Origin: a virus
Lineage: Duplodnaviria; Caudoviricetes
Reading direction: 5' to 3' (one strand)
Length of the DNA stretch: 64,000 nt
IMG/VR virus record: IMGVR_UViG_3300033067_002128
Location: 34,432-98,431 of that record
The notes below the pieces were generated by a model that did not search any database, was not told where the DNA came from, and saw only the letters and a program-made list of their open reading frames with translations. The position numbers were made by a program, and so were the translations under genes. Positions 1-34,828 of the stretch are shown here, one piece after another. Each line of letters starts with the position of its first letter. Within the stretch, counting starts at the first letter, position 1.

Positions 1-75
1 GTAGAGGTCGAAAAATCTCCAGAAGTCCAAGAAACAGAATCAGATGGACAAGAAGGAGCTACTCAAGAAGGCTGA
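1..75 (+). CDS. 3' end of an upstream hypothetical protein (acidic C-terminus), truncated by window edge
   Basis: Frame 1 open from base 1: VEVEKSPEVQETESDGQEGATQEG, TGA at 73-75; overlaps start of next gene. Confidence 0.55.
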   Translation, partial: VEVEKSPEVQETESDGQEGATQEG

Positions 76-922
76 ATCGGTTCTTTTTGATATTTTGCGC
101 GGCTACAGTATTTTAAATGCTGGAAGCCGCGAATTGTATTTCAAACACTTTACTTTGCTTGATTCCCTTTCTTTCGAGGAAGAGTATAACAAAAGTTTGG
201 CATCCGCGAAAAGATCGGGAATTAAAGACGAAGCCGCCATTATAGCCGAGGCTATTAAATCCAAAAAGTGGTCCATACAAAAAGAAGAAGAGATAAAATC
301 ATTGATTTGGAGCATAGAAAAGCTGTCTGCCGCCTCTAAGAAAATATCCGACAGATGGCAAAGAAAAAGCGCCGAACAAAATGTAAAAGACAAGCAAGAG
401 GAATTGTCGAAAATTCAAGATGCTCGTCGTGAGATTTGCTCTTTCAGCGCGGAATCTTTTGCAGAAACAAAAAAGATAAAGAGAATCATTGCTTCTTCAC
501 TATATGAAGACGAGAAGTTGGAGAAAAAACTTGACGAGTCTGAAATTTTCCTATATTCAAAACAGTTTTTTGATAAAATTTCGGATTTAAATGAATCAAA
601 AGTCATAGCTTGCGCGGCCTATAATACCTCCTTTTTTGAGGTATTCTCGTTAAATTATAGGACTCCACATGTGCTATTAAAGAATGTCGGAATGGAAATG
701 ACCGTATTCCAGAAGAATCTTTTGGTCTATGCCAATGCCCTTCTTAATAAGCTAAGGAATGTCAATGTCCCAGAAAACATTCTGGAAGACGCAATAAGTG
801 TTCTTAATTATAAAGAGGTTGAGAAGAGTTCTGGCAAGAATACAAGCGTGGGCTTGGATGACTTGAAGGAAAAAAGCGCAAAAAATGGCGGCCAATTAAA
901 TCCCGAAGATTTTATTACATAA
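44..922 (+). CDS. hypothetical protein, possible tail assembly chaperone
   Basis: 292 aa helical, charged protein immediately upstream of the tape measure gene; function from position only. Confidence 0.4.
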   Translation: MDKKELLKKAESVLFDILRGYSILNAGSRELYFKHFTLLDSLSFEEEYNKSLASAKRSGIKDEAAIIAEAIKSKKWSIQKEEEIKSLIWSIEKLSAASKKISDRWQRKSAEQNVKDKQEELSKIQDARREICSFSAESFAETKKIKRIIASSLYEDEKLEKKLDESEIFLYSKQFFDKISDLNESKVIACAAYNTSFFEVFSLNYRTPHVLLKNVGMEMTVFQKNLLVYANALLNKLRNVNVPENILEDAISVLNYKEVEKSSGKNTSVGLDDLKEKSAKNGGQLNPEDFIT

Positions 923-938: not shown

Positions 939-3900
939 ATGGCAGGACAAGCATTTAATGCCCAAATGAATTTGACTCTGAATTCTCAGAGTCTTAATAC
1001 CGCTACCAAAGAGATTAGGCAGGCGTTGGGTCGTATTACAGGAAACGCTTCAGAGTTCCAGAAATCGCTTGATGCTTCGACTGCCCGTGTTTTTGCTTTC
1101 GGTGCCACCACTTTGGTTATTCAGGGCGTTAATCAGGCATTTAAGGCTCTTATCGGCACGACAATTGAGGTCGAGAAGAGAATGACGGAAATCAAAACAA
1201 TCTTTAGTGGAACGGCCCAAGAATTCAACGCTTTCCGCGAAAGCGTCTTCCAAGTTGCAAAAGATACTGGACAGGCATTTTCAGTAGTTGCGGATGCTGC
1301 GGCAGAATTTGCCCGTCAAGGTCTTAACGCAGAAGAAACGGCAAAAAGACTTGAGGCCGCTCTTGTCTTGACAAATGTTTCTGGTCTTGATTCGGTTAAA
1401 TCCGTCAATACTCTTACGGCAGCCATTAACGGTTTCAAATCGGCTGCTTTGACGGCAGAACAAGTAACCAACAAATTGGTTGCGGTTGATACCAGATTCG
1501 CTGTTTCGGCAAAAGACCTCGCAGACGGGTTGACCCGTGCTGGTTCTACGGCAGAAGATGCTAGGGTCAGCTTTGACGAATTGTTGGGTATTATTACTGC
1601 CGTTCAACAAAAAACCCAGCGCGGTGGTGCTGTTATTGGTAACGCCCTTAAAACGATTTTTACAAGATTGGGTCGCCAAGGAGCCATTGAAGACTTGCAG
1701 GCTCTTGGGGTGGCAATTGATGAATCTCAAAGCGGCATTCAAAAACTCAAAGCTCTTGGAGAGGCGTTTGAGGCCGCATCTGGCGATCCGTCAAAACAAA
1801 ACAAAATTAAAGAAATTTCCGCTGGTGGTTTCCAAATTAACATCATTTCTGCCGCTTTAAAAGATTTAAATAGCGAACAATCTATATTTGCCGACGCGAC
1901 AAAAGCTTCGACAAATGCCGCGCAGGAAGGATACGAAAAGAACGCCAAAATTGTCAAAACCCTTAGTGGTCAGATTAACGCCTTGATTGTCAGCCTAACA
2001 AATATGGCTGAAAAGGTGGGCCAGATAACTTTTGCGCCGATTTTGGGAACTCTTGTTGATATTGCTTCGAAAGTTTCTGGATTTTTAAATGAGGCTCTTG
2101 ATCCAGAAAAAGGAAACGCTTTTGTCAAGGGGATATTGAAGAGCATCGGGTCTTTTGTCAGTGGGCCGGGACTCGTTTTGCTTACGACGGCCTTTATTAA
2201 AGTTATATCTTTGGTCGCCAAGTTTGCCAAAGACGGATTCAAATCCGTTCTCTCTATTAATTCCGAGTCTGAAAAATTAAAGAGTATTCAGGTTGGCATT
2301 GTCAATAGCTTGAATACAGATAAAAAGTTTCGTGAGGCAATTCTAAGCACCACCTTGACTCATGCGGAAAAACAGCAAGCTATTGCCGATGCGATCAATA
2401 GGGAAAACAAATTGTTGCGCGAGCAGGAAAGAATTCTAACAGCCATTGGCAAGTTTGCCCTTTCCAGAGGCATATCTGGATTTGATACTGGAAGCGGGTT
2501 TGTCGATCCAAAAGGCAAGCCGAAAAATGCCGCAAAAGGCTTCGTCCCTTCTTTCCAAGCTTCCGCACAGGAAACAATGATGGAAACATCTGCGGCAAGA
2601 GAGCATGGTTATAAAGCTGGCAAAGTATTCAATACAAGATTGTATGATGGAACTGGAGGATCGTTCAAAGCCACCGTAAATAGTGCTGAAAAAATCAAAA
2701 CGGTCAAAGGGCCGAATGGAGAATTAGGGACTTATGTAATTCCTCCTAATGGTTTGGCAGCAAAAGGCTTTGTGCCGAATTATGCTCCAATAAAAGCTCC
2801 GTATGCTGGCGCAAAAAAAATTCGCGAAGCTGAACAAAATGGAACTTTAGAATCTTATAAAAAAGGAGGAACTTATTTCTTTCCAGATGGTTCGCAGGCA
2901 GCAGAATCTCAAGTTTTAACTGTAACAAGAAGAAGCGAAAACATTTCGGCAAGAGATGAAGCAAGAACTCAACTTCGTGGTGGAAGTTTTGGAATGCTTG
3001 TTCCTAATTTGGGATTTGTCAGAGACAATCCTCAATTCATAGGTTCTATAGACAAAACCCCTTATGTTATTGATAACTTGGCCATTCGCGGTCCAGATTT
3101 ATCAAAGACTGATCGTGCCGCAGATCCAAATGACGAATTGTTAAAGAAAAACATTGTTTCAAAAATCATAGACGAAAGCGCCAAATTTGCCAACTCTTTA
3201 GGCGGATCAAGACTCGACAGAAAAGCAATCACCACGCAATTTTCAAAAAATAGCGGAGCAAGAGGCGCGATCAATGGTGCTGTCGGCGCAGCCTTTGATG
3301 CTTCTGTTTTGGCGGCTTATCCTTCTGGAAGATATTCGGATAGTAAAAACAAAGAATTGAATAAAATTGGCGGTGATTTTGATTTAAGAAATGTTGATAA
3401 TGATGTAAAGACTCTTTTTAATTTGCCAAGGACAGTAACAACAGCCGACTTCAAGGCTTCTCCTTCTTCCGACAATATAAAAAGCTTCGTTGGTAAAATA
3501 ATGAAGGAACAGCGTGTTACCGCGACCCAAAAAGGAGAGATAACAAGAATAGACAACAGAAACAAAAAACTGCAAGGGAAGGCTTCTGGTTTTGTTCCGA
3601 ATTTTTCTCAAAAACCCCAAAAACTCCAAGAAGGAGATGATTTCGAAAAGCGCGTTTTCGGATACTTGGGTATGAAACCACCAGCAGGCAGAAGATTGGA
3701 TTTCGAACCAACGGAATTAAGACGCCAGCCTCCAGTTAGAAAATCAAGAATTGGCCTGCAAGGAGATTATGGGGACGTAAAGCTTTCTGGAGCGGATACA
3801 AATGAACATAACTTTTTAGGGAAACTAATTGCTCATTTTGGGTTGGCAGACAAAATCCAAAATTTATGGGACTCTGGCAGAAGAAAGGCTCCTATAGATT

Positions 3901-6900
3901 TAAATGCTTTAGAGCCAAAAATTAATAGCGCGTCTCTTTTCTACGAAGCCGATCCATCTATTTATCAAAGAGACACATTAAAAGCCTCGATTTCGGATGT
4001 TCTTCATTCTTCAAGGCCAAGAAAGGGAGAAAACAGCAAACTACTTGAAAAATTCAATTTTGCAAGAGCCAAAAAGGGCATATCTACATCCTCTGCTGTC
4101 AAACCGCAATATCGCGGTAAAGAATTGCAGGCGACAATTTTCAGGGATGGAATTTTAGACCCGTCGAATCTTGAAATAGATGAGCCATTTGGCAAGGGGT
4201 TTGTTCCAAACTTTGGTCTTAAAAACATAATTGAGTCTGCTAAATTTGCAGGGAACGCCGCTAAAACATTTGGAAAAGCCTTACCAAAGGGGACAATATC
4301 TTCCGCCGTTAAAGGTCAACTCGATCCAGAAACAATTTGGCCTCAACTGGAAGCTTTTATAATGAGACCAGAAAAGCTTATAACAAACATAGCTTCTTTG
4401 GAAAAAGCGAAAACAACAATTCGGACATTTCTTTCAAATGATATATTAAGGGACCGTTTTGCCAAAAGAGTTGCCCCATTGATAAACACTGATTTTTATA
4501 ACAACGCAGATGCATTAAAAAGCAGAGATTATTCATCATTAGAAGAAAATCCAGAAGACGAAAATTATCTAAAATACAAGCTTTTGGGAGGAACAAAGTC
4601 TATAAAAGATTCTGGATTTTCTGTTTCTGGCATTTCAGAAAAAGGAGCTTTCTCGAAATTGAAGCAAGGCTCTTATTATGCAAAAGACGTTGCTGACGCC
4701 GCAAGGCGGGCTATAAACCACGACCAAATGGGAAATCCTAATGTGAATGGGGATCAATATGATCCGAGAATGCTCGATAAAAAAGGCAAGTTTTACGGGT
4801 ATTCGAGTCTTTTAGGTGGATTCACAGGAAGAGTAAAGCAATACAAGGGTAAAAAATTTGCTTCATATAATGACAGATGGGATGTTGATCTAAATGCCCA
4901 AGAGAAAAAAATGCTGTATAGGCATCTATCAGGAGAAGAAATTTCTCAAGAAGAATTTTACAATTTTACTGGCTCAACAAACTCTTATGAAGCTCAATCT
5001 TTTGCCCCTTATATTCTTAGAGAACTCGTCTCCGCTATTCCTAAAGCACAACCAGCACGATTCAAGGGTGTTGTGTCATTGGCAAATGGGTTTGTTCCTA
5101 ATTTTGTCCGCTCAAGTAGAAAAATGGGTTCTGGAGAATATGGTTCTTTCTATAAACTAAACGATAAAATAGGAACAAAAAGATTTAATAAAGAAACTCC
5201 TCGGGATAAAATTCCCGTGGAAACATCTGATATTGTAGAGGAATACGCTAATGCATCTCTTCTTGCGAACGTTCCTGTTGTGCGCGGTATTACTGGACCA
5301 AAAGTTGTGAATAGTCTGGAGGACGCAATCCGCGCACGCAGAATCCGCAAGGAAATTGTCACTTGGCCAATGGCTAAAGACGCAATCGGATTAACAGAGT
5401 CAAGCAATGTTGGTGATATTCTGGAATGGAATTTGACCGATAATGGATTAATGGCGAGTGATTTGCATGGCAATAATTATGCGATGAACCAACAAGCCGT
5501 GAGATTTTTTAATGAAAACGACGGGTTGCCGATGCTTGGCAAGGGAAGTCGTTCTGGATGGATGGGAGAGTTTGCTAGAAGTGGATCTATGGCGTCTATT
5601 GTTGACGCTGGATTGATGCACGCAACATCTCAAAATTTAAAGAACTACATAAGTAATATTGCTTCTCAAGCATCTCAAATTTTAGGAATTAGTTCCACTA
5701 CAAAAAAACAACAAAGTTCCAAAATCCGCTCGACAACAGCGAAAACTGCGGCAAATGGCTTTATTCCAAACTTCAATATCTTCAAAGCTTTCCCTCAAAA
5801 GAACGAGCGCATGAGCTTCGTTGGTGCGGCAAAAAGAGGCAATTCTAAAGTCCTCGACACCATGCAAAAGGCTGGTATAAACTTGAAGCCTTCAAGATTC
5901 GGCCAAGCGCCAGATATTGGAAAACTCAAGAAACTATTCCAGCTTAAAGACAGTCAACAGCCATTCAATTCCTTTTTTAACAAAGCTTATGAAGTGGCCG
6001 ACACAAAAACCAAAACAGGCGCATCTGAAGATCAAATGCTTGCTGAGTTTTGGAACTTGTATGGTAAAAATCCAATTGTCCAAAAAGAACTCTCCAATAT
6101 CAAGGCGGAAGGTTTTGTTCCGAACTTTGCAGACGCCAAAAAACAAAAAACTCCAATCAAAGGCCGCAACACATTCCAAAAAGAATGGCTAACCGAGCAA
6201 TCCAAAAAAACAGGAGTTTCATTAAATAATCCAGACGCCGTTTTCAAACTTGGCGCGAAGTTCGCCAAGAAGTATCCTAATGACCAATACATGATGGCGC
6301 TTGCTGAAGGTTTTGTTCCCAATTTCGTCTCTAAATCAAGAATGATGGGTTTTGGGGCTCAAGGTTCTTTTGCCAAACTGAACGAAAACGTTGGAGTCAA
6401 GAAATTTGATAAATCGTTATCTCCGCAAAAACTACAAACCGCTTTAGAGCGTGAATGGTTGTCCGCGCAGCATTTGTGGGAGTCCACACAAGGCGAAATG
6501 GTCACTGGCCCGAAAGTTCTTTCAAGCCTAGCCGACTCAATTAGAAGAAAGGGCATAAGAAAAGAAATCATCAATGACCCGCTTGCAAGAGCCGCCGTTG
6601 GGGGAGAAAAGGCCAGAGAATTCGGCATAGGCTTCTTGAAAAATCTGGTATTGCAGAAAACAGGATTAGAGATTCCTGATTTGCATGGTTCGAATTATAC
6701 AGTCAATGATGCGGCCAAAGAGTATCTCTTGGGTGACGCTTCCAAAAAAGCGGGGGCGAAGTTTAATATCATTGATACTGGTTTGGCCAAGGCGGTTGGA
6801 TACAAGGCTCAAGAAGCATACAGAAGATTATATGCCCAAAAAGAGCAAGCTAAGAAAAAAGCCGCTTCTGGTTTTATCCCGAACTTCTCCGCAGTAAACG

Positions 6901-9900
6901 ACGCAATCAAACGCGAACAATCCGCTGGCGTTCCAAAATCCGCAATTTATCTCGACTCTTCTCCCCAATTAAAGTCTTCTAGGAACCCTAGTGGTTTAAT
7001 GGTGGCGAACTCCATTGATGAACCAAAAGGAGGCTATCAGGGCATTCAAAGAGCCAAAAAGGAAGGCAAGAATCCAAAAATGTATGGTGCCGCTGGAGGG
7101 TTTGTGCCGAATTATGCGGCAAAAATTGGTGGTATATCTGTAAAAAGTGGGACCGCTTCCTTTGATCTGAATGCAAGTGCAAAATTAAATGATGCGTTGC
7201 AAAATATGGCAAAAGAAATGCGGGCTGGAAAAATGACTTTATCTACGGCAAGAAAAAATTTTGAAAGTCTGACCAAAACACTTGGAGTATCAAACCAATC
7301 CCAAAAAGACTTAAATTCCAAAGGTCAAGGATTAATTGGCGCTTATGATCTTGAAATGAAAAACAGAAAAGCTCTTGCCGATTCTATCAGACAAGGAAGG
7401 GCTCAAAGGGGCAAAAAAACTTCGGGTCCGAACGGTTTTGATAAAACTCTTGAAATGGCAAAAGGCGGCTTAGATAAGTTTAATAATAAACTTATAGGTG
7501 CTCAATTTGGTCTTTTCGCAATATCAACTGCTGCCGAAGGTCTTGTTGGAGATAATAAAGAGCTTTCAGAAGGAATACAAAAAACAACTCAACTTCTTGG
7601 TTCTGCTCTTGCTATATCACAAGTTGCGCCAGCTTTTCTCTCTCTTCTTACCCCCATTGGACTTGTTGTGGGCGCTTTCGCGTTAGCGGGTGCAGCAATT
7701 TTATATTTTAACTCTCAAATTAAAAAATTCGAAAATGAAGGAGAAGTAACTAAGGGTAAAATCAGGTCTGTTCGTGGATCACAAAATCAACGAAAAATAA
7801 CAGAACTAACTGCTGCTGGCGTTGATCCAGTTGAAATTGAAGCTATACAAAAAAGACAAACGGCGGTTGAAGAAGCTAGAAATAAAGCTGAAGCCGAAAG
7901 ATCGAAGTTGGAAAAATTACAAAATAATCGTGATTTAGCTGGATCAGGGATTTTGGGAAACAGTATAATTACAAAAGATTTGGATCAGAAAATCAAAAAC
8001 CAATCTCCAATTTCAGAAGCAGCAGACGCGGCATATCAAGCTCTTGCAGATCAATTTGATAAAGACAATGAGGCGGCAAAGAAAGCGGCGGAAGACCTTA
8101 AAAAGTCATTTGACTTTGCCAAAAGACTCTCTTCTGATAAGGGTTTCGTGGGAGAACGAGCAAGCGCGGCTCTTACTGAATTTGCGACACAAGATAAAAG
8201 ATTTAAAGACGCTAAAAAAGCAAAAGCAGAAATTGATGGCCAATTAAAAAACGAAAACATAAAAGGCGAAGCAAGAAACGCTTTACAAAACAAACAACAA
8301 CAAGCCGAAGAGGAATTTAATTCAGCCGATACTTCTCTTAAATTCGCCCTTAACGAACTCCAAGCCATATTCAAAAGAGGCGGTAAAGACCTAAGCTCAG
8401 AACTTAAAATTGCTGCCGACATGTTTAAAGCCAGAATGTCTAAATTAAATGAAGAAATTGAAAAATCTGGAGAAGCATTAAGAAAAAGAAGCGAGATTTT
8501 AAACATAACCCAATCAATCAACGCTCCAGAAGATGAAAAATTTTCTAAAGTCCTACCAAAACTTTTAGAAATTCAAGGAGCCAAAACAAACGCGCAATTC
8601 GCTCAAAACGAATTTAACAAAGGGTTTTCCGATATTTCAAAAATATTTGATCCATCAATCTTGAAAATTGATGATACTCCACAAAAAAACAAAGCACAGG
8701 CTGAAAGAGATCTTATTGCGCAAAATAGATCAGTTTCAAATCCAGAAGGAACGCTAACTAAAGACCAACAAGGCAAAATAGACGAAAACTTTAAGAAAGA
8801 ACTTGACGCAGCTCAACAAAAAGCCCTAGAAAGTGCAAAAACAAAATTGCCAAAAATTGAAGAAAGCATAAAAAGTGGAGATGCTCAAAGTAGGCTTTTC
8901 GAAACATTTGTAAGTGGCGGCGAAAAGGCTTTTGACCAAGTGTTTAAAGGCTCTTTCTCTTTTGTGGATTTAGGAACAGAAGGCGGAAAGGCGCTATATG
9001 ATTCCTTATTAGAGGGCGCAAAAAATTTCAAAGGAGCAATTATTGAAGGCTATACAAAAGCCAAAAATATTCAAAACGAAATCAATAATCAAATTAAACA
9101 AACTGGACTGGAGTTAATAAAAGCCCAAAAAGAAGCCTTGTCGAGTCTTCCTTCCACGCTGGAGAAAATTAAAGAAGGTCCATCTGTTGATCCTTTGGCT
9201 CTTTTCAAAAAATTTGAAGAAGCTGCAAAATTACTCAAAACTGGAAAAGCAGAAGATGCCAAAAAGGCAACAGACATTCTTTCTTCAACTTCAAAAGATT
9301 CCGAAGCTTTCAAGGGTTTATTTGGTCAAAAATCTTTAGAAGGAATCCAAGAAAGGGCTGGGCTTGATCCAAGCGCGGTTGCAAAAACAGTCGAATCCGC
9401 GACATTCAGTAAAACTATTTTTGATTCAATAGAAAATACAATTAAAGATAGTCTTACTGGCGGGAATCGTCTTCAAGCGACAAAAGCACTTGAAAATGTC
9501 AAGGCCGACCCATCAAAAATTAATGAGTTTATTGAGACAATAAACCGCACATTTACTGGTAGCCTTGCTGGCAAAGGAAAGCAGATTACATCTTCTGTCC
9601 AAATGTTTGCTCCTCAAGGACCGTCTTCTCAAGACATAACCAGAAGACTGGCTGGAACATCAGAAATAAAATTTGCCGATAAGGAAACGGTTGAAGGGCT
9701 TAAAAAGGCAATTGCTGAATTTTCTAAAAATGCCCAAGACCCAAAAGCGTTTGAAGGGCTTAAAAAACAATTAGAGTCGGTTTTCGGTCAAGAAAAAGGA
9801 AGCAAGGCCGCAGAAGCTTATAAAACAGCCGCAAATAGAACCCGTGAGTTTTCTCCAGAAGATGATGCTGTAAAGGGTCTTACCGAAAGACAAAAACAAC

Positions 9901-10133
9901 TTCAAGTAGAAATGAAAATGGTGGAAGAACAAATCAAGGGTTTTGCCGCTGCTTTCGATAAAACAAGTATAACAAAATCTATTGATGCTTTGGATCAGGC
10001 TGTTAAAGATGCTTCAACTGGAGTCACAAGTTTTGCGACAATGACAAAAACGCTAGACAATATTTCTGTCAATATTCTTGGAAGGCTTTCTAAGATTGAG
10101 GAAAAAATAGGTGCGGCAGGGAAGAATCCATGA
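939..10133 (+). CDS. tail tape measure protein with central array of motif-delimited cargo domains
   Basis: N-terminal TP901-like TMP region (AAAEFARQGL...SAKDLADGLTRAGSTA...GGAVIGNALKTIFTRL), hydrophobic segments near aa 405-430 and 2185-2260, long coiled-coil C-terminus, located before tail-tip genes. Confidence 0.9.
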   Translation: MAGQAFNAQMNLTLNSQSLNTATKEIRQALGRITGNASEFQKSLDASTARVFAFGATTLVIQGVNQAFKALIGTTIEVEKRMTEIKTIFSGTAQEFNAFRESVFQVAKDTGQAFSVVADAAAEFARQGLNAEETAKRLEAALVLTNVSGLDSVKSVNTLTAAINGFKSAALTAEQVTNKLVAVDTRFAVSAKDLADGLTRAGSTAEDARVSFDELLGIITAVQQKTQRGGAVIGNALKTIFTRLGRQGAIEDLQALGVAIDESQSGIQKLKALGEAFEAASGDPSKQNKIKEISAGGFQINIISAALKDLNSEQSIFADATKASTNAAQEGYEKNAKIVKTLSGQINALIVSLTNMAEKVGQITFAPILGTLVDIASKVSGFLNEALDPEKGNAFVKGILKSIGSFVSGPGLVLLTTAFIKVISLVAKFAKDGFKSVLSINSESEKLKSIQVGIVNSLNTDKKFREAILSTTLTHAEKQQAIADAINRENKLLREQERILTAIGKFALSRGISGFDTGSGFVDPKGKPKNAAKGFVPSFQASAQETMMETSAAREHGYKAGKVFNTRLYDGTGGSFKATVNSAEKIKTVKGPNGELGTYVIPPNGLAAKGFVPNYAPIKAPYAGAKKIREAEQNGTLESYKKGGTYFFPDGSQAAESQVLTVTRRSENISARDEARTQLRGGSFGMLVPNLGFVRDNPQFIGSIDKTPYVIDNLAIRGPDLSKTDRAADPNDELLKKNIVSKIIDESAKFANSLGGSRLDRKAITTQFSKNSGARGAINGAVGAAFDASVLAAYPSGRYSDSKNKELNKIGGDFDLRNVDNDVKTLFNLPRTVTTADFKASPSSDNIKSFVGKIMKEQRVTATQKGEITRIDNRNKKLQGKASGFVPNFSQKPQKLQEGDDFEKRVFGYLGMKPPAGRRLDFEPTELRRQPPVRKSRIGLQGDYGDVKLSGADTNEHNFLGKLIAHFGLADKIQNLWDSGRRKAPIDLNALEPKINSASLFYEADPSIYQRDTLKASISDVLHSSRPRKGENSKLLEKFNFARAKKGISTSSAVKPQYRGKELQATIFRDGILDPSNLEIDEPFGKGFVPNFGLKNIIESAKFAGNAAKTFGKALPKGTISSAVKGQLDPETIWPQLEAFIMRPEKLITNIASLEKAKTTIRTFLSNDILRDRFAKRVAPLINTDFYNNADALKSRDYSSLEENPEDENYLKYKLLGGTKSIKDSGFSVSGISEKGAFSKLKQGSYYAKDVADAARRAINHDQMGNPNVNGDQYDPRMLDKKGKFYGYSSLLGGFTGRVKQYKGKKFASYNDRWDVDLNAQEKKMLYRHLSGEEISQEEFYNFTGSTNSYEAQSFAPYILRELVSAIPKAQPARFKGVVSLANGFVPNFVRSSRKMGSGEYGSFYKLNDKIGTKRFNKETPRDKIPVETSDIVEEYANASLLANVPVVRGITGPKVVNSLEDAIRARRIRKEIVTWPMAKDAIGLTESSNVGDILEWNLTDNGLMASDLHGNNYAMNQQAVRFFNENDGLPMLGKGSRSGWMGEFARSGSMASIVDAGLMHATSQNLKNYISNIASQASQILGISSTTKKQQSSKIRSTTAKTAANGFIPNFNIFKAFPQKNERMSFVGAAKRGNSKVLDTMQKAGINLKPSRFGQAPDIGKLKKLFQLKDSQQPFNSFFNKAYEVADTKTKTGASEDQMLAEFWNLYGKNPIVQKELSNIKAEGFVPNFADAKKQKTPIKGRNTFQKEWLTEQSKKTGVSLNNPDAVFKLGAKFAKKYPNDQYMMALAEGFVPNFVSKSRMMGFGAQGSFAKLNENVGVKKFDKSLSPQKLQTALEREWLSAQHLWESTQGEMVTGPKVLSSLADSIRRKGIRKEIINDPLARAAVGGEKAREFGIGFLKNLVLQKTGLEIPDLHGSNYTVNDAAKEYLLGDASKKAGAKFNIIDTGLAKAVGYKAQEAYRRLYAQKEQAKKKAASGFIPNFSAVNDAIKREQSAGVPKSAIYLDSSPQLKSSRNPSGLMVANSIDEPKGGYQGIQRAKKEGKNPKMYGAAGGFVPNYAAKIGGISVKSGTASFDLNASAKLNDALQNMAKEMRAGKMTLSTARKNFESLTKTLGVSNQSQKDLNSKGQGLIGAYDLEMKNRKALADSIRQGRAQRGKKTSGPNGFDKTLEMAKGGLDKFNNKLIGAQFGLFAISTAAEGLVGDNKELSEGIQKTTQLLGSALAISQVAPAFLSLLTPIGLVVGAFALAGAAILYFNSQIKKFENEGEVTKGKIRSVRGSQNQRKITELTAAGVDPVEIEAIQKRQTAVEEARNKAEAERSKLEKLQNNRDLAGSGILGNSIITKDLDQKIKNQSPISEAADAAYQALADQFDKDNEAAKKAAEDLKKSFDFAKRLSSDKGFVGERASAALTEFATQDKRFKDAKKAKAEIDGQLKNENIKGEARNALQNKQQQAEEEFNSADTSLKFALNELQAIFKRGGKDLSSELKIAADMFKARMSKLNEEIEKSGEALRKRSEILNITQSINAPEDEKFSKVLPKLLEIQGAKTNAQFAQNEFNKGFSDISKIFDPSILKIDDTPQKNKAQAERDLIAQNRSVSNPEGTLTKDQQGKIDENFKKELDAAQQKALESAKTKLPKIEESIKSGDAQSRLFETFVSGGEKAFDQVFKGSFSFVDLGTEGGKALYDSLLEGAKNFKGAIIEGYTKAKNIQNEINNQIKQTGLELIKAQKEALSSLPSTLEKIKEGPSVDPLALFKKFEEAAKLLKTGKAEDAKKATDILSSTSKDSEAFKGLFGQKSLEGIQERAGLDPSAVAKTVESATFSKTIFDSIENTIKDSLTGGNRLQATKALENVKADPSKINEFIETINRTFTGSLAGKGKQITSSVQMFAPQGPSSQDITRRLAGTSEIKFADKETVEGLKKAIAEFSKNAQDPKAFEGLKKQLESVFGQEKGSKAAEAYKTAANRTREFSPEDDAVKGLTERQKQLQVEMKMVEEQIKGFAAAFDKTSITKSIDALDQAVKDASTGVTSFATMTKTLDNISVNILGRLSKIEEKIGAAGKNP
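2529..7115 (+). repeat. ten dispersed copies of peptide motif xAxGF[VI]PN[FY] within TMP
   Basis: Copies start at 2529 (AAKGFVPSF), 2757 (AAKGFVPNY), 3579 (KASGFVPNF), 4188 (FGKGFVPNF), 5079 (LANGFVPNF), 5748 (AANGFIPNF), 6102 (KAEGFVPNF), 6300 (LAEGFVPNF), 6861 (AASGFIPNF), 7089 (AAGGFVPNY). Confidence 0.95.
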
Positions 10134-11650
10134 GCCTAATCATCAACAAAATCTCCTCCTCTTCCCTTCAGATAAACTATAATTATCTGGAGTCTGATTT
10201 GCTTTTTGGTTATACTGTCGCGGCGACTTACAAAATCGACTTTTCGGATGTCAGTTATACCAACGAGGCAAACGTCCTTTTCGAAGGCGTCGAAGCTCTT
10301 CGCCAAGCCTATCAAAGAAAAAACTTGGTCGCCAGAATTGGCGGCGATGAATTCATCAATGGAAGATTAACCAGTCATTCTTTCGAAGAGTCTGTTTTGG
10401 TGGGGAATTCTTCCTGCTCAATAACCATTGAAGAATCAAAGCGCCTGAATGAATACTCAAGTCACGAATTCGCCCAACATATTCCTAGCCCACAATGGAT
10501 CGAATCTTTCCAAGAAAACTTCTCGTTTTCGAGATCGGGCGACTCTTATTCTTCGTCAAGGAATGTCTCTTTAAAATATAAACAGGACGCTGGCTCCCAA
10601 TTTTTAAACAATGCCAAACTTTTCTTGCGTAATTTTTATTTTAATGCGCGGCCAAATTTGGGTTATCATGTTGATGGGATTTCTGAAAACGGAAGATTTG
10701 ACGGAGGATTCAGACCATTAATTTCAGAGACGATTGACCTTTTGGGGCTTTCTGTTTCAATTCAGGAAAATCTCGAAACTTCATCCATCAGCGGCGATCA
10801 CTCAAAGCGCCAAACTTACTCTCTTGAAATCGGCCAAGATGGCTATTTGCAAAAGAAATATACCGTCGAAATTAAAGCCATCAAGGAGCCTCTGGAACAA
10901 GTTGCCAACGCGGCCTGTAAGACAATCACAGATGCCCTTATAGCGTCAAATTCGGCCCAATTTGGCAACCCTATAGAAATCGGGAAGGGTCTTAATAAAG
11001 ACGGAGGAGAAATCAGTCTCTCAATGTCTTTTTCGAACAACCCAAGCCTCAATTCCGCAACAACAACCACCTATTCTGTCACAAAAAATAGAAGACAGGC
11101 GTTTTTTGATTATTCTTTAAATATCGACATTCTTTCTGAGGGGACAAACCAAATACAAAAAGCAGACAACTCAAAAGCATACTGGATTTCTGTTGTTCCG
11201 ACATACCCCACAAAAATACAAACCCTGTTCCCAGAAGCGACCCCTCTTTACGAAAAAGAACATTCGACAAACTTTGAGTATAAAGATGGGAAAATTGTTG
11301 ACAGCGCGACATTTACAGATGATCCCGCCTACAATCCAAGTGGGCTTCCAGACGGCATAATCAAATTAAAATTCTCAAACAGCCAAAACCCAAAGCTTGA
11401 CAGAATTCGCACTTTTATTGACTTGGGCGATAAAAAAGAGAAAATCGAATTAAGCGACCTATTGACCATAGGTAATGGCTCTTTTTCAATGGAGGCTACG
11501 GCTTACAAGTCGAAAGGAATGAATTTCGCCGCAGACTATTTGAAATCTGTGACTTTTTCAATAGGGGAAACCCTATATGTAAACGGTGAAACCATAACAA
11601 TTAGCTCCGAGGGGTCGGCAAGCCGTGTAATAAGCTACGAGTTTATTTAA
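10130..11650 (+). CDS. putative tail tip/baseplate structural protein
   Basis: 506 aa, beta-rich S/T/Y composition, ATGA-coupled to TMP. Confidence 0.5.
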   Translation: MSLIINKISSSSLQINYNYLESDLLFGYTVAATYKIDFSDVSYTNEANVLFEGVEALRQAYQRKNLVARIGGDEFINGRLTSHSFEESVLVGNSSCSITIEESKRLNEYSSHEFAQHIPSPQWIESFQENFSFSRSGDSYSSSRNVSLKYKQDAGSQFLNNAKLFLRNFYFNARPNLGYHVDGISENGRFDGGFRPLISETIDLLGLSVSIQENLETSSISGDHSKRQTYSLEIGQDGYLQKKYTVEIKAIKEPLEQVANAACKTITDALIASNSAQFGNPIEIGKGLNKDGGEISLSMSFSNNPSLNSATTTTYSVTKNRRQAFFDYSLNIDILSEGTNQIQKADNSKAYWISVVPTYPTKIQTLFPEATPLYEKEHSTNFEYKDGKIVDSATFTDDPAYNPSGLPDGIIKLKFSNSQNPKLDRIRTFIDLGDKKEKIELSDLLTIGNGSFSMEATAYKSKGMNFAADYLKSVTFSIGETLYVNGETITISSEGSASRVISYEFI

Positions 11651-34117: not shown

Positions 34118-34828
34118 GTGAGGATTACTGTCATTACTTCTGTTTTTAATTCTTCTTACTTTATTGGTCATTTTCTTGACGATATAAGAAGGCAAACTAT
34201 TTTTGAAGATTGTGAATTCTTTTTTCTCGATGCGGGAGGGAATGATGGAAGCAGGCTAGAAATATTAAAATTAGCTCAATTTTACCCAAATATCCAATAT
34301 TTTAACATTGGCCCGAAAAACATTTATGAGACTTGGAATCTAGGAGTCGTTCTCTCTAAGACAAAATATTTAACAAATTGGAATACGGATGACCGTCGAT
34401 TGCCAGATTCTTTAGAAAAACAAGTAAAGTTTTTAGACGAAAATCCAGATATTGATTTATGTTATGGCCAAACTTTGTGGGTTGACACTCCGAATCTCAT
34501 AGTAGAAGAAAGCCCGCAAGAGAATAAAACACCTTGTTTTAATGCCACACTTGAAACAATGCTTCAATTTAATTCTCCTCACTGTCTTCCTGTTTGGAGA
34601 AAATCCCTTCATGAGAAGCATGGATTATTTGACGATAAATTTTTCTCTGCTGGAGATTATGAAATGTGGATGCGGGCGCTTAATCGCGGATCGAAATTTG
34701 GGAAACTGGACGAAGTAGTGGGTTCTTATTATAGGAACCCAAAAGGAATAAGTTCCAACCCCGAAACTTTGAATAAGGCTGTGGAAGAAGTGATGAAAAT
34801 AAGAGAATTTTATGGAAACAAAACCTAA
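34118..34828 (+). CDS. glycosyltransferase family 2
   Basis: ITVITSVFN, IYETWNLGV, NWNTDD, AGDYEMWMR. Confidence 0.85.
   Translation: MRITVITSVFNSSYFIGHFLDDIRRQTIFEDCEFFFLDAGGNDGSRLEILKLAQFYPNIQYFNIGPKNIYETWNLGVVLSKTKYLTNWNTDDRRLPDSLEKQVKFLDENPDIDLCYGQTLWVDTPNLIVEESPQENKTPCFNATLETMLQFNSPHCLPVWRKSLHEKHGLFDDKFFSAGDYEMWMRALNRGSKFGKLDEVVGSYYRNPKGISSNPETLNKAVEEVMKIREFYGNKT

Follow-up and report, generated by a model that had tools for sequence, protein, structure and literature searches.

Modules bounded by a repeated junction peptide are exchanged within the tape measure protein of an uncultured phage lineage

We describe an array of nine modules in the middle half of a phage tape measure protein (TMP) encoded in a 64,000-nucleotide (nt) stretch of viral DNA, hereafter the window, which is the 3' 64 kb (positions 34,432 to 98,431) of the 98,431-bp IMG/VR virus record IMGVR_UViG_3300033067_002128 (completeness ~66%). 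Each module lies between two copies of a short peptide, and in related TMPs whole modules are exchanged between phages, with breakpoints at this peptide. Two of the modules have the predicted fold and the active-site residues of protein kinases, and the array is read here, tentatively, as enzyme cargo carried in the tail. The protein and the regions on either side of the array are as follows.

939..10133, + strand: TMP open reading frame (ORF), 9,195 nt, 3064 amino acids (aa), without cysteine, from the ORF list and translation
939..2537, + strand: N-terminal TMP region, aa 1-533, conserved, with PF10145 and the hydrophobic stretch aa 402-431; matched in 112 of 119 homologues
7116..10130, + strand: C-terminal TMP region, aa 2060-3064, with the hydrophobic stretch aa 2185-2261 and then a long stretch rich in Lys, Glu and Ala and poor in Pro, Tyr and Trp

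The junction peptide and the exchange of modules

A regular-expression search for G-F-[VI]-P-[NS]-[FY] found exactly ten copies in the TMP, all between aa 534 and 2059 (nt 2538-7115), against 0.0004 copies expected from its amino-acid composition. They bound nine segments (S1 to S9) of 70, 268, 197, 291, 217, 112, 60, 181 and 70 aa. An initial annotation of this DNA, made from the letters alone, had described the same ten copies and nine segments, and its lengths and ours are equal once its three upstream motif residues are subtracted. In order along the protein, with the motif copies taken from the regular-expression search, the array reads:

2538..2555, + strand: motif copy 1, GFVPSF, aa 534-539
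2556..2765, + strand: S1, 70-aa small module of families 3/10, from segment families and homologue comparison
2766..2783, + strand: motif copy 2, GFVPNY, from aa 610
2784..3587, + strand: S2, 268-aa near-universal module, from family alignment, AlphaFold2 model and family hidden Markov model (HMM)
3588..3605, + strand: motif copy 3, GFVPNF, from aa 884
3606..4196, + strand: S3, 197-aa cassette with a D-F-E .. L-D-F .. G-D-V-K pattern, in 5 homologues
4197..4214, + strand: motif copy 4, GFVPNF, from aa 1087
4215..5087, + strand: S4, 291-aa cassette, in 10 homologues
5088..5105, + strand: motif copy 5, GFVPNF, from aa 1384
5106..5756, + strand: S5, protein-kinase-like cassette (Gly loop aa 1397-1404, K1414, DLHGNN 1508-1513, IVDAG 1554-1558)
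5757..5774, + strand: motif copy 6, GFIPNF, from aa 1607
5775..6110, + strand: S6, 112-aa cassette, in 1 homologue
6111..6128, + strand: motif copy 7, GFVPNF, from aa 1725
6129..6308, + strand: S7, 60-aa cassette, in 5 homologues
6309..6326, + strand: motif copy 8, GFVPNF, from aa 1791
6327..6869, + strand: S8, minimal protein-kinase-like cassette (Gly loop aa 1804-1811, K1821, DLHGSN 1914-1919, IIDTG 1944-1948)
6870..6887, + strand: motif copy 9, GFIPNF, from aa 1978
6888..7097, + strand: S9, 70-aa universal terminal module, modelled with alpha-beta-beta-alpha topology at a predicted local distance difference test score (pLDDT) of ~90
7098..7115, + strand: motif copy 10, GFVPNY, from aa 2054

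Codons for Gly, Phe, Val/Ile, Pro and Asn vary among the ten window copies, whose 18-nt sequences share only 75% nucleotide identity, and among 300 copies from related loci all synonymous codons are present at frequencies near background. Because synonymous codons vary, roughly following background usage, we conclude that the motif is conserved at the protein level, which the initial annotation had already proposed from the window copies; a role as a DNA-level recombination site is ruled out by the codon variation among copies. In the window, Ala stands at position -2 in nine of the ten copies (copy 4 has Gly), and copy 1 has Ser for Asn. Strict copies number 553 in 120 proteins (1-12 per protein), with the consensus A-A-x-G-[FY]-[VI]-P-N-[FY]-A (by position: A, 50%; A/S, 88%; S/G; G, 100%; F; V/I; P, 100%; N, 98%; F/Y; A, 72%), and Tyr and Leu are frequent at motif position 2 among relatives. 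Conservation lies on the N-terminal side of the motif, and the residue that follows is small (A 72%, V 9%, S 7%). All 300 motif copies in the 80 related loci fall within TMP ORFs, and the other six-frame ORF space, 806,531 aa in all, contains none; likewise, none occurs outside the TMP in the phage's own 98-kb record. Within the protein the motif occurs nowhere but at the borders of modules, and the long N and C regions, helical in composition, have no copy. Better-known short signals were set aside: the motif is presumably not a signal peptidase site, there being no hydrophobic core ahead of it, nor, we assume, a prepilin peptidase G/F site (no Glu at +5, no hydrophobic helix), an N-glycosylation sequon (Ser/Thr at +2 not conserved) or a docking motif of the sliding-clamp or SSB-tail type, whose sequences we take to differ.

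With aa 520-2070 as the query, a homology search gave 190 significant proteins, almost without exception TMPs of 1,700-5,100 aa; when IMG/VR was scanned with the S9 module, 104 loci were confirmed and 80 retained. A further locus search with another alignment (A3) added only 4 new loci, and one with an alignment of the two kinases gave no loci, its patterns being too narrow. The motif recurs in ~200 giant metagenomic TMPs; 200 TMPs cut at the motif gave 851 internal segments in 118 families, in architectures that span a minimal N-[S2-like]-[S9-like]-C (N-1-0-C) to eleven cassettes, the window TMP being 3-1-26-15-2-49-36-2-0 by segment family. Across the ~200 homologous TMPs the flanks of the array are conserved while the number, order and identity of the cassettes vary, which is the behaviour that the initial annotation had proposed looking for, and BLAST homology of the window segments starts or ends 0-10 residues from a motif in the subject, so that the motif does coincide with domain boundaries. 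The exchange is most directly seen in pairs of near-identical proteins. P0028 and P0064 share 99.7% identity through the motif at aa 629-634, continue with unrelated cassettes of 193 and 201 aa, and are back at 96% identity from just before the next motif; P0044 and P0045, which are 90% identical, differ by one 155-aa cassette and one motif. Whole modules are exchanged between phages, and the breakpoints lie at the motif peptide.

A few modules are nearly constant. S9 is present in 115 of the 119 homologues, nearly always last, and the S9-type family 0 in 171 proteins. S2-like modules are found in 106 of the 119, and the S2 module is close to universal because its family HMM also captures many further families (7, 18, 19, 20, 23, 24, 47, 48 and others). 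S1-like modules are probably universal too, since TMPs without a detected S1 have N regions that are ~90 aa longer; a comparison of S1 with S9 by hhalign gave a probability of 94%, a score driven by the shared flanking motifs.

S9 shows some variation of its own. Compared with P0064 (otherwise 94-99% identical), P0028 has at aa 1873-2140 a second S9 copy and one extra cassette at the end of the array, and therefore S9 itself can be duplicated. Two forms of the module exist, one of ~71 aa and one of ~57 aa (loci L055, L065, L069, L073, L076, L081 and others; around 10001-10230); the shorter lacks the stretch Q-G-I-x-R-A-x-x-E-G-x-N-P. The sole match among 185,579 species genomes lies at 15349-35612 of the 139-kb contig CAZDRR010000001.1 (L095), which belongs to a metagenome-assembled genome labelled Candidatus Saccharibacteria and has an S9 that is 72% identical; this could be a clue to the host or a mis-binned phage contig.

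The array also stands apart in composition. It is globular and high in Pro, Tyr and Trp, unlike the ruler regions; the N and C regions are low in these residues and high in Ala, Lys and Glu, a composition of helical type. All nine modules have isoelectric points of 9.4-9.8, like the N and C regions. The absence of cysteine from the 3,064 aa of the TMP is matched by 8 Cys in the 342,659 aa of 120 related TMPs, as compared with ~1.6% in the phage's other long ORFs. The hydrophobic stretches at aa 402-431 (nt 2142-2231) and aa 2185-2261 (nt 7491-7721) lie one on each side of the array, where the initial annotation had placed them.

Kinase cassettes and the remaining modules

AlphaFold2 models were obtained for S2 with its family alignment (mean pLDDT 76.5, pTM 0.57) and for the S8-S9 pair (pLDDT 88.0; kinase part 95-98, S9 ~90). 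All five motif copies included in the models scored between 41 and 61 and were docked on no domain. The modelled segments (S2, S8 and S9) are predicted to fold as independent domains, with the motifs in low-confidence linkers, in agreement with the expectation of the initial annotation that the segments would be separate domains. A trimer prediction of motif-S9-motif scored 0.01, which is no support and no evidence either way.

A Foldseek search with the S8 model gave 138 matches at E ≤ 1e-3, all of them protein-kinase-like (Rv3197, Bud32, Rio2, ULK1, IRAK4), and the family of S5 and S8 has a predicted bilobal kinase fold. In an alignment of 25 members, G18, G20, K35, E56, D129, N134 and D177 are at least 90% conserved; these are two glycines of the Gly loop, the Lys of strand beta3, the Glu of helix alphaC, the Asp and Asn of the catalytic loop D-L-H-G-x-N and the metal-binding Asp of DxG. 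By predicted fold and active-site residues, S5 and S8 are thus confirmed as minimal protein-kinase-like domains with a complete set of catalytic residues, the identity that had initially been given to two segments, and their Gly-rich loops begin 8 residues past the motif, about as close to it as had been noted. S5 and S8 had no match in Pfam at E ≤ 10, and the family profile had no kinase match among PDB sequences; against 1.84 billion representative proteins it found only 62 relatives, nearly all of them giant proteins in which the domain is embedded. Short matches to the profile that might have been separate genes were rejected as contig-end fragments. As far as sequence searches can tell, the kinase family is specific to these TMPs. 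The two window copies are paralogues with 36% identity; since each is closer to cassettes of other phages (60% and 64% identical) than to the other, they are not a local duplication.

For S2 the case is less clear. Its conserved positions are G783, F786, D787, D815, D837-x-K839 and K853, D787 being Glu in at least 90% of relatives; in the alignment of 38 sequences there is no variation at G178, D210, K234 and K248, and F181-E182 is conserved to at least 90%, with Asp at 182 in the window protein. The order E/D .. D .. D-x-K is the pattern of PD-(D/E)xK nucleases. Foldseek searches of PDB and BFVD, together with a VIA-wide alignment, gave no convincing match of S2 to a nuclease or other fold, and the S2 profile had no match among PDB sequences. 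Read by eye, S3 has a compact E..D..DxK arrangement like that of S2 (D-F-E at aa 901-903, L-D-F at 920-922, G-D-V-K at 945-948); the S2-family HMM does not match it. Of the initial proposal that S2 and S3 are nuclease segments, the residue pattern stands and a fold or family match was not found, so we retain the nuclease label as a hypothesis suggested by that pattern.

The other modules gave little. Pfam and PHROG scans of the nine segments returned nothing meaningful, S3 and S4 had no match among PDB sequences, and S3, S4, S6 and S7 had no match anywhere searched, apart from unnamed viral clusters and a weak, probably chance Colicin M lead (0.75) for S4 in the ESM Atlas, where S9 had no usable match. 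Stand-alone relatives of 140-608 aa were found for neither S4 nor the S2 family. Among the cassettes of relatives, P0029 has GNAT matches within motif-bounded cassettes of 177-178 aa and family 4 has weak P-loop matches; twenty cassette representatives run against Pfam and PHROG gave only such weak hints.

Muralytic domains do occur in relatives (VanY, NlpC/P60, phage lysozyme, SLT and GH19, in P0011, P0026, P0031, P0039 and P0085), all in the C region past the last motif and never inside the array; the window TMP's own C region has no muralytic Pfam match. Because the muralytic domains of relatives lie after the last motif, the array is distinct from classical TMP-embedded lysins.

The tape measure gene and its setting

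The N-terminal region carries PF10145 (PhageMin_Tail) at aa 106-282 (E = 9e-22, 78.3 bits against a cut-off of 33.2, Pfam scan) and matches ten PHROG tape-measure families (best E = 1.8e-46), which identify the ORF at 939-10133, at the level of sequence, as a TP901-type TMP. PHROG annotation places a terminase and a portal upstream of it in the record and gave no match for the remaining neighbour genes. A tblastn search of INPHARED with the array found no match in cultured phages, and the source phage belongs to a deeply divergent, uncultured lineage of the siphophage type.

Directly upstream of the TMP lie ORFs of 331 and 305 aa (window 44-922 and G000:C1:33511-34503, the latter L082 18111-19103) that overlap by ~68 nt in different frames, which is the usual site and layout of a frameshifted tail assembly chaperone pair; they are unusually large for such chaperones, and neither has a PHROG match. 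The terminase ORF (1,033 aa, L082 3901-6999, G000:C1:19301-22399) also matches helicase and endonuclease PHROGs over its first 420 residues, which hints at an insertion or fusion, perhaps of an intein or homing endonuclease.

Possible roles of the array and known systems

We favour, tentatively, the view that the array is polyvalent cargo carried in the tail and that the motif is a processing site. Under this view the array would ride in the tail lumen along with the rest of the TMP and exit first at infection, placing ready-made enzymes in the host cytoplasm ahead of phage gene expression; the cargo would comprise ATP-dependent kinases in the window phage and GNAT-like and P-loop-like modules in relatives. 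The cytoplasm is the presumed place of action because kinases and acetyltransferases need ATP or acetyl-CoA, and we infer delivery of the polyvalent type from TMP biology, the absence of cysteine and the precedent of gp96 of Thermus phage P23-45 (compared below). Since that precedent supports delivery, we regard it as probable, by analogy, that the modules are carried in the tail and pass into the host, and are less confident of cleavage at the motif, which we suspect from analogy without yet counting it as likely. In this least certain step, the junction peptide would be cleaved during maturation, with recognition on its N-terminal side and the cut beside the following small residue, which would release the modules from the ruler. 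A protease site fits best because selection acts on the protein, the motif occurs only at module borders and in flexible linkers, conservation is on the N-terminal side, and a small residue and then the next domain follow at once. As in a polyprotein, a conserved short site followed by a small residue stands at each domain border; as in polyvalent proteins, several unrelated catalytic domains (kinase, GNAT, P-loop hints) are joined in a mosaic giant polypeptide.

A cleaved TMP is known from phage T5, in which pb2 is cut after R1127 during tail assembly, between the ruler and the enzyme domain, into the maturation products pb2* and pb2C, both of which are retained in the tail in trimeric form (Linares et al. 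2023, PMC10038345). The cut-site sequence is G-N-A-N-S-F-V-P-R/A-E-G-G (the slash marks the cut), and F-[VIT]-P-R/A is kept in four of five aligned Demerecviridae TMPs, among them relatives from Klebsiella, Providencia and Vibrio phages, down to ~40% identity, and lost in one Vibrio phage. A run of small residues, F-[VI]-P and a following Ala are common to this site and our motif, a suggestive likeness in what is a short, post hoc match from which the cut position cannot be transferred.

Several observations weigh against a processed cargo. Searches of the ~66% complete 98-kb record found no ClpP, Prp or S78 (the HK97-type prohead protease), and the neighbour genes lack PHROG matches; S2, S3, S4, S6 and S7 have no assigned function; and all members of this group are uncultured. 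The likeness to T5 amounts to F-[VI]-P and the following Ala, and the T5 cut follows an Arg one residue past the Pro, where the window motif has its invariant Asn-aromatic pair. By a rough estimate, three folded 20-kDa domains per TMP trimer would fit tightly in a tail lumen of ~4 nm. Moreover, most protease sites are less strict than this motif of ten residues, four of them invariant, and a docking motif would fit as well.

Alternatively, one could envision modules that are never cut apart, the junction peptide being a short linear docking motif for a conserved partner (the tail-tube lumen, a tail assembly chaperone, another part of the TMP or a host translocation factor) and the array one tethered polyvalent protein, anchored in the membrane by its flanking hydrophobic segments. 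The low-pLDDT linkers in which the motifs lie are as expected of partner-dependent linear motifs, and the near-invariance of G, P and N, the restriction of the motif to the TMP, the failure to find a protease in the 98-kb record, the hydrophobic segments on either side of the array and the description of P23-45 gp96 as active while still fused to its TMP would all suit such an arrangement. We nonetheless consider it unlikely, if worth taking seriously: a signal for binding a chaperone or the tube would be expected in the helical N and C regions too and not only at module borders, the next domain begins 0-10 residues past the motif and leaves little space for a bound partner, and AlphaFold2 placed no flanking motif onto S2, S8 or S9 in cis. 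It is doubtful, too, that the junction peptide is a self-contained release device that dispenses with a separate protease, either through an asparagine-lyase cut at the invariant Asn, for which the tail tube or ejection would supply the environment, or through S2 acting as a new motif-reading peptidase. Asparagine-lyase chemistry operates in the capsid maturation of nodaviruses, tetraviruses and reoviruses. Were self-release true, the TMP would be a natural plug-in system, in which any module between two motifs could be loaded, released and delivered into the host.

There are two further explanations. The peptide may have no partner at all and be a tolerated inter-domain joint, kept as the common junction for recombinational exchange of cassettes; breakpoints that fall exactly at the motif in near-identical backgrounds and cassette families common only to these TMPs would be accounted for, but the free mixing of synonymous codons at every motif position, with 75% nucleotide identity, makes for weak DNA homology and puts the constraint on the peptide, and a neutral linker would not hold G, P and N invariant where other parts of the TMP have diverged to 25-40% identity, so we think this improbable. 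Least credible to us is a mainly structural array, a filler that sets tail length or a plug of the lumen whose enzyme-like folds are relics. Five of the nine modules lack a recognisable function and the universal S1, S2 and S9 could be architectural; however, the kinase catalytic residues are all at least 90% conserved across the family, cassettes turn over rapidly between near-identical TMPs in a manner typical of conflict systems and not of structural parts, and the globular, Pro-, Tyr- and Trp-rich array is unlike the ruler regions.

If the reading as a processed cargo is true, the tail lumen serves a large, uncultured group of phages with long tails as a hold for cargo, and through the tail ready-made enzymes (kinases, acetyltransferases and others), in a set that can change, reach the inside of the cell before the DNA does. 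The single known TMP-fused injected enzyme, that of P23-45 gp96, would then be one case of a general system, modular and quick to evolve, that bears comparison with polymorphic toxins and with the effector repertoires of secretion systems. Its junction peptide, being defined, could be tried as a signal that loads or releases proteins in engineered phage delivery; its many new enzyme families could be searched for functions in taking over the host or in countering its defences; and the repeated motif would give access, at the level of sequence, to the way in which TMPs such as T5 pb2 and lambda gpH are matured by proteolysis, for which an explanation is still wanting. The window copy contributes two well-resolved kinase cassettes, and with it come statistics on motif exclusivity, pairs of near-identical TMPs with swapped cassettes and a comparison of the T5 site among Demerecviridae.

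No published description of a motif-fenced TMP array came up in literature text searches, whether by motif string or by concept. As far as these searches go, the initial remark that no described TMP of this architecture was known holds for the array itself, and needs to be qualified by the precedents of P23-45 gp96, T5 pb2 and the polyvalent proteins. T5 pb2 shares F-[VI]-P and the following Ala of its site (S-F-V-P-R/A) with the window motif; it differs in having a single site, cut after Arg, where the window TMP has ten sites with an invariant Asn-aromatic pair, and in releasing a wall-acting muralytic metallopeptidase, whereas relatives of the window TMP keep their muralytic domains outside the array. 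P23-45 gp96 is a 5002-aa TMP with a fused virion RNA polymerase that, once in the infected cell, acts on the DNA of the phage (Chaban et al. 2024, PMC10770324). It resembles the window TMP as a giant TMP with a cytoplasm-acting enzyme that passes through the tail, a route that we infer for the window protein; its enzyme is one N-terminal domain and not a mid-protein array, and neither a repeated junction motif nor cassette exchange has been described for it. In actinobacterial contractile injection systems, TMP-related effectors of the Sle1 type are packed in the tail-like tube, and their functional domain is exchangeable between species (Nagakubo et al. 2026, PMC13277306). A TMP-like protein within a tube and a swappable functional domain are thus common to both; Sle1 has one C-terminal functional domain in a contractile system and lacks a junction motif. 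For the minimal injected effector kinases OspG and NleH and the atypical kinases RIO and Bud32, no sequence-level relation to S5 and S8 was found in Pfam or among PDB sequences.

Polyvalent proteins of phages and conjugative elements unite kinases that lack the C-terminal subdomain, GNATs and nucleases in mosaic giant proteins, which are proposed to be injected with the DNA and whose carriers belong to head/MuF-type and conjugative contexts (Iyer et al. 2017, PMC5512222). The window TMP is like them in being a giant phage polypeptide that joins many unrelated catalytic domains with extensive mosaicism. That description contains no mention of tape measure proteins and no conserved junction peptide; here, in contrast, the carrier is a TMP, the same ten-residue motif stands at every junction, and the kinase family gave no sequence match outside giant TMPs. 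Polyvalent proteins are nevertheless the nearest concept, and P23-45 gp96, T5 pb2 and Sle1 each share one aspect of the array.

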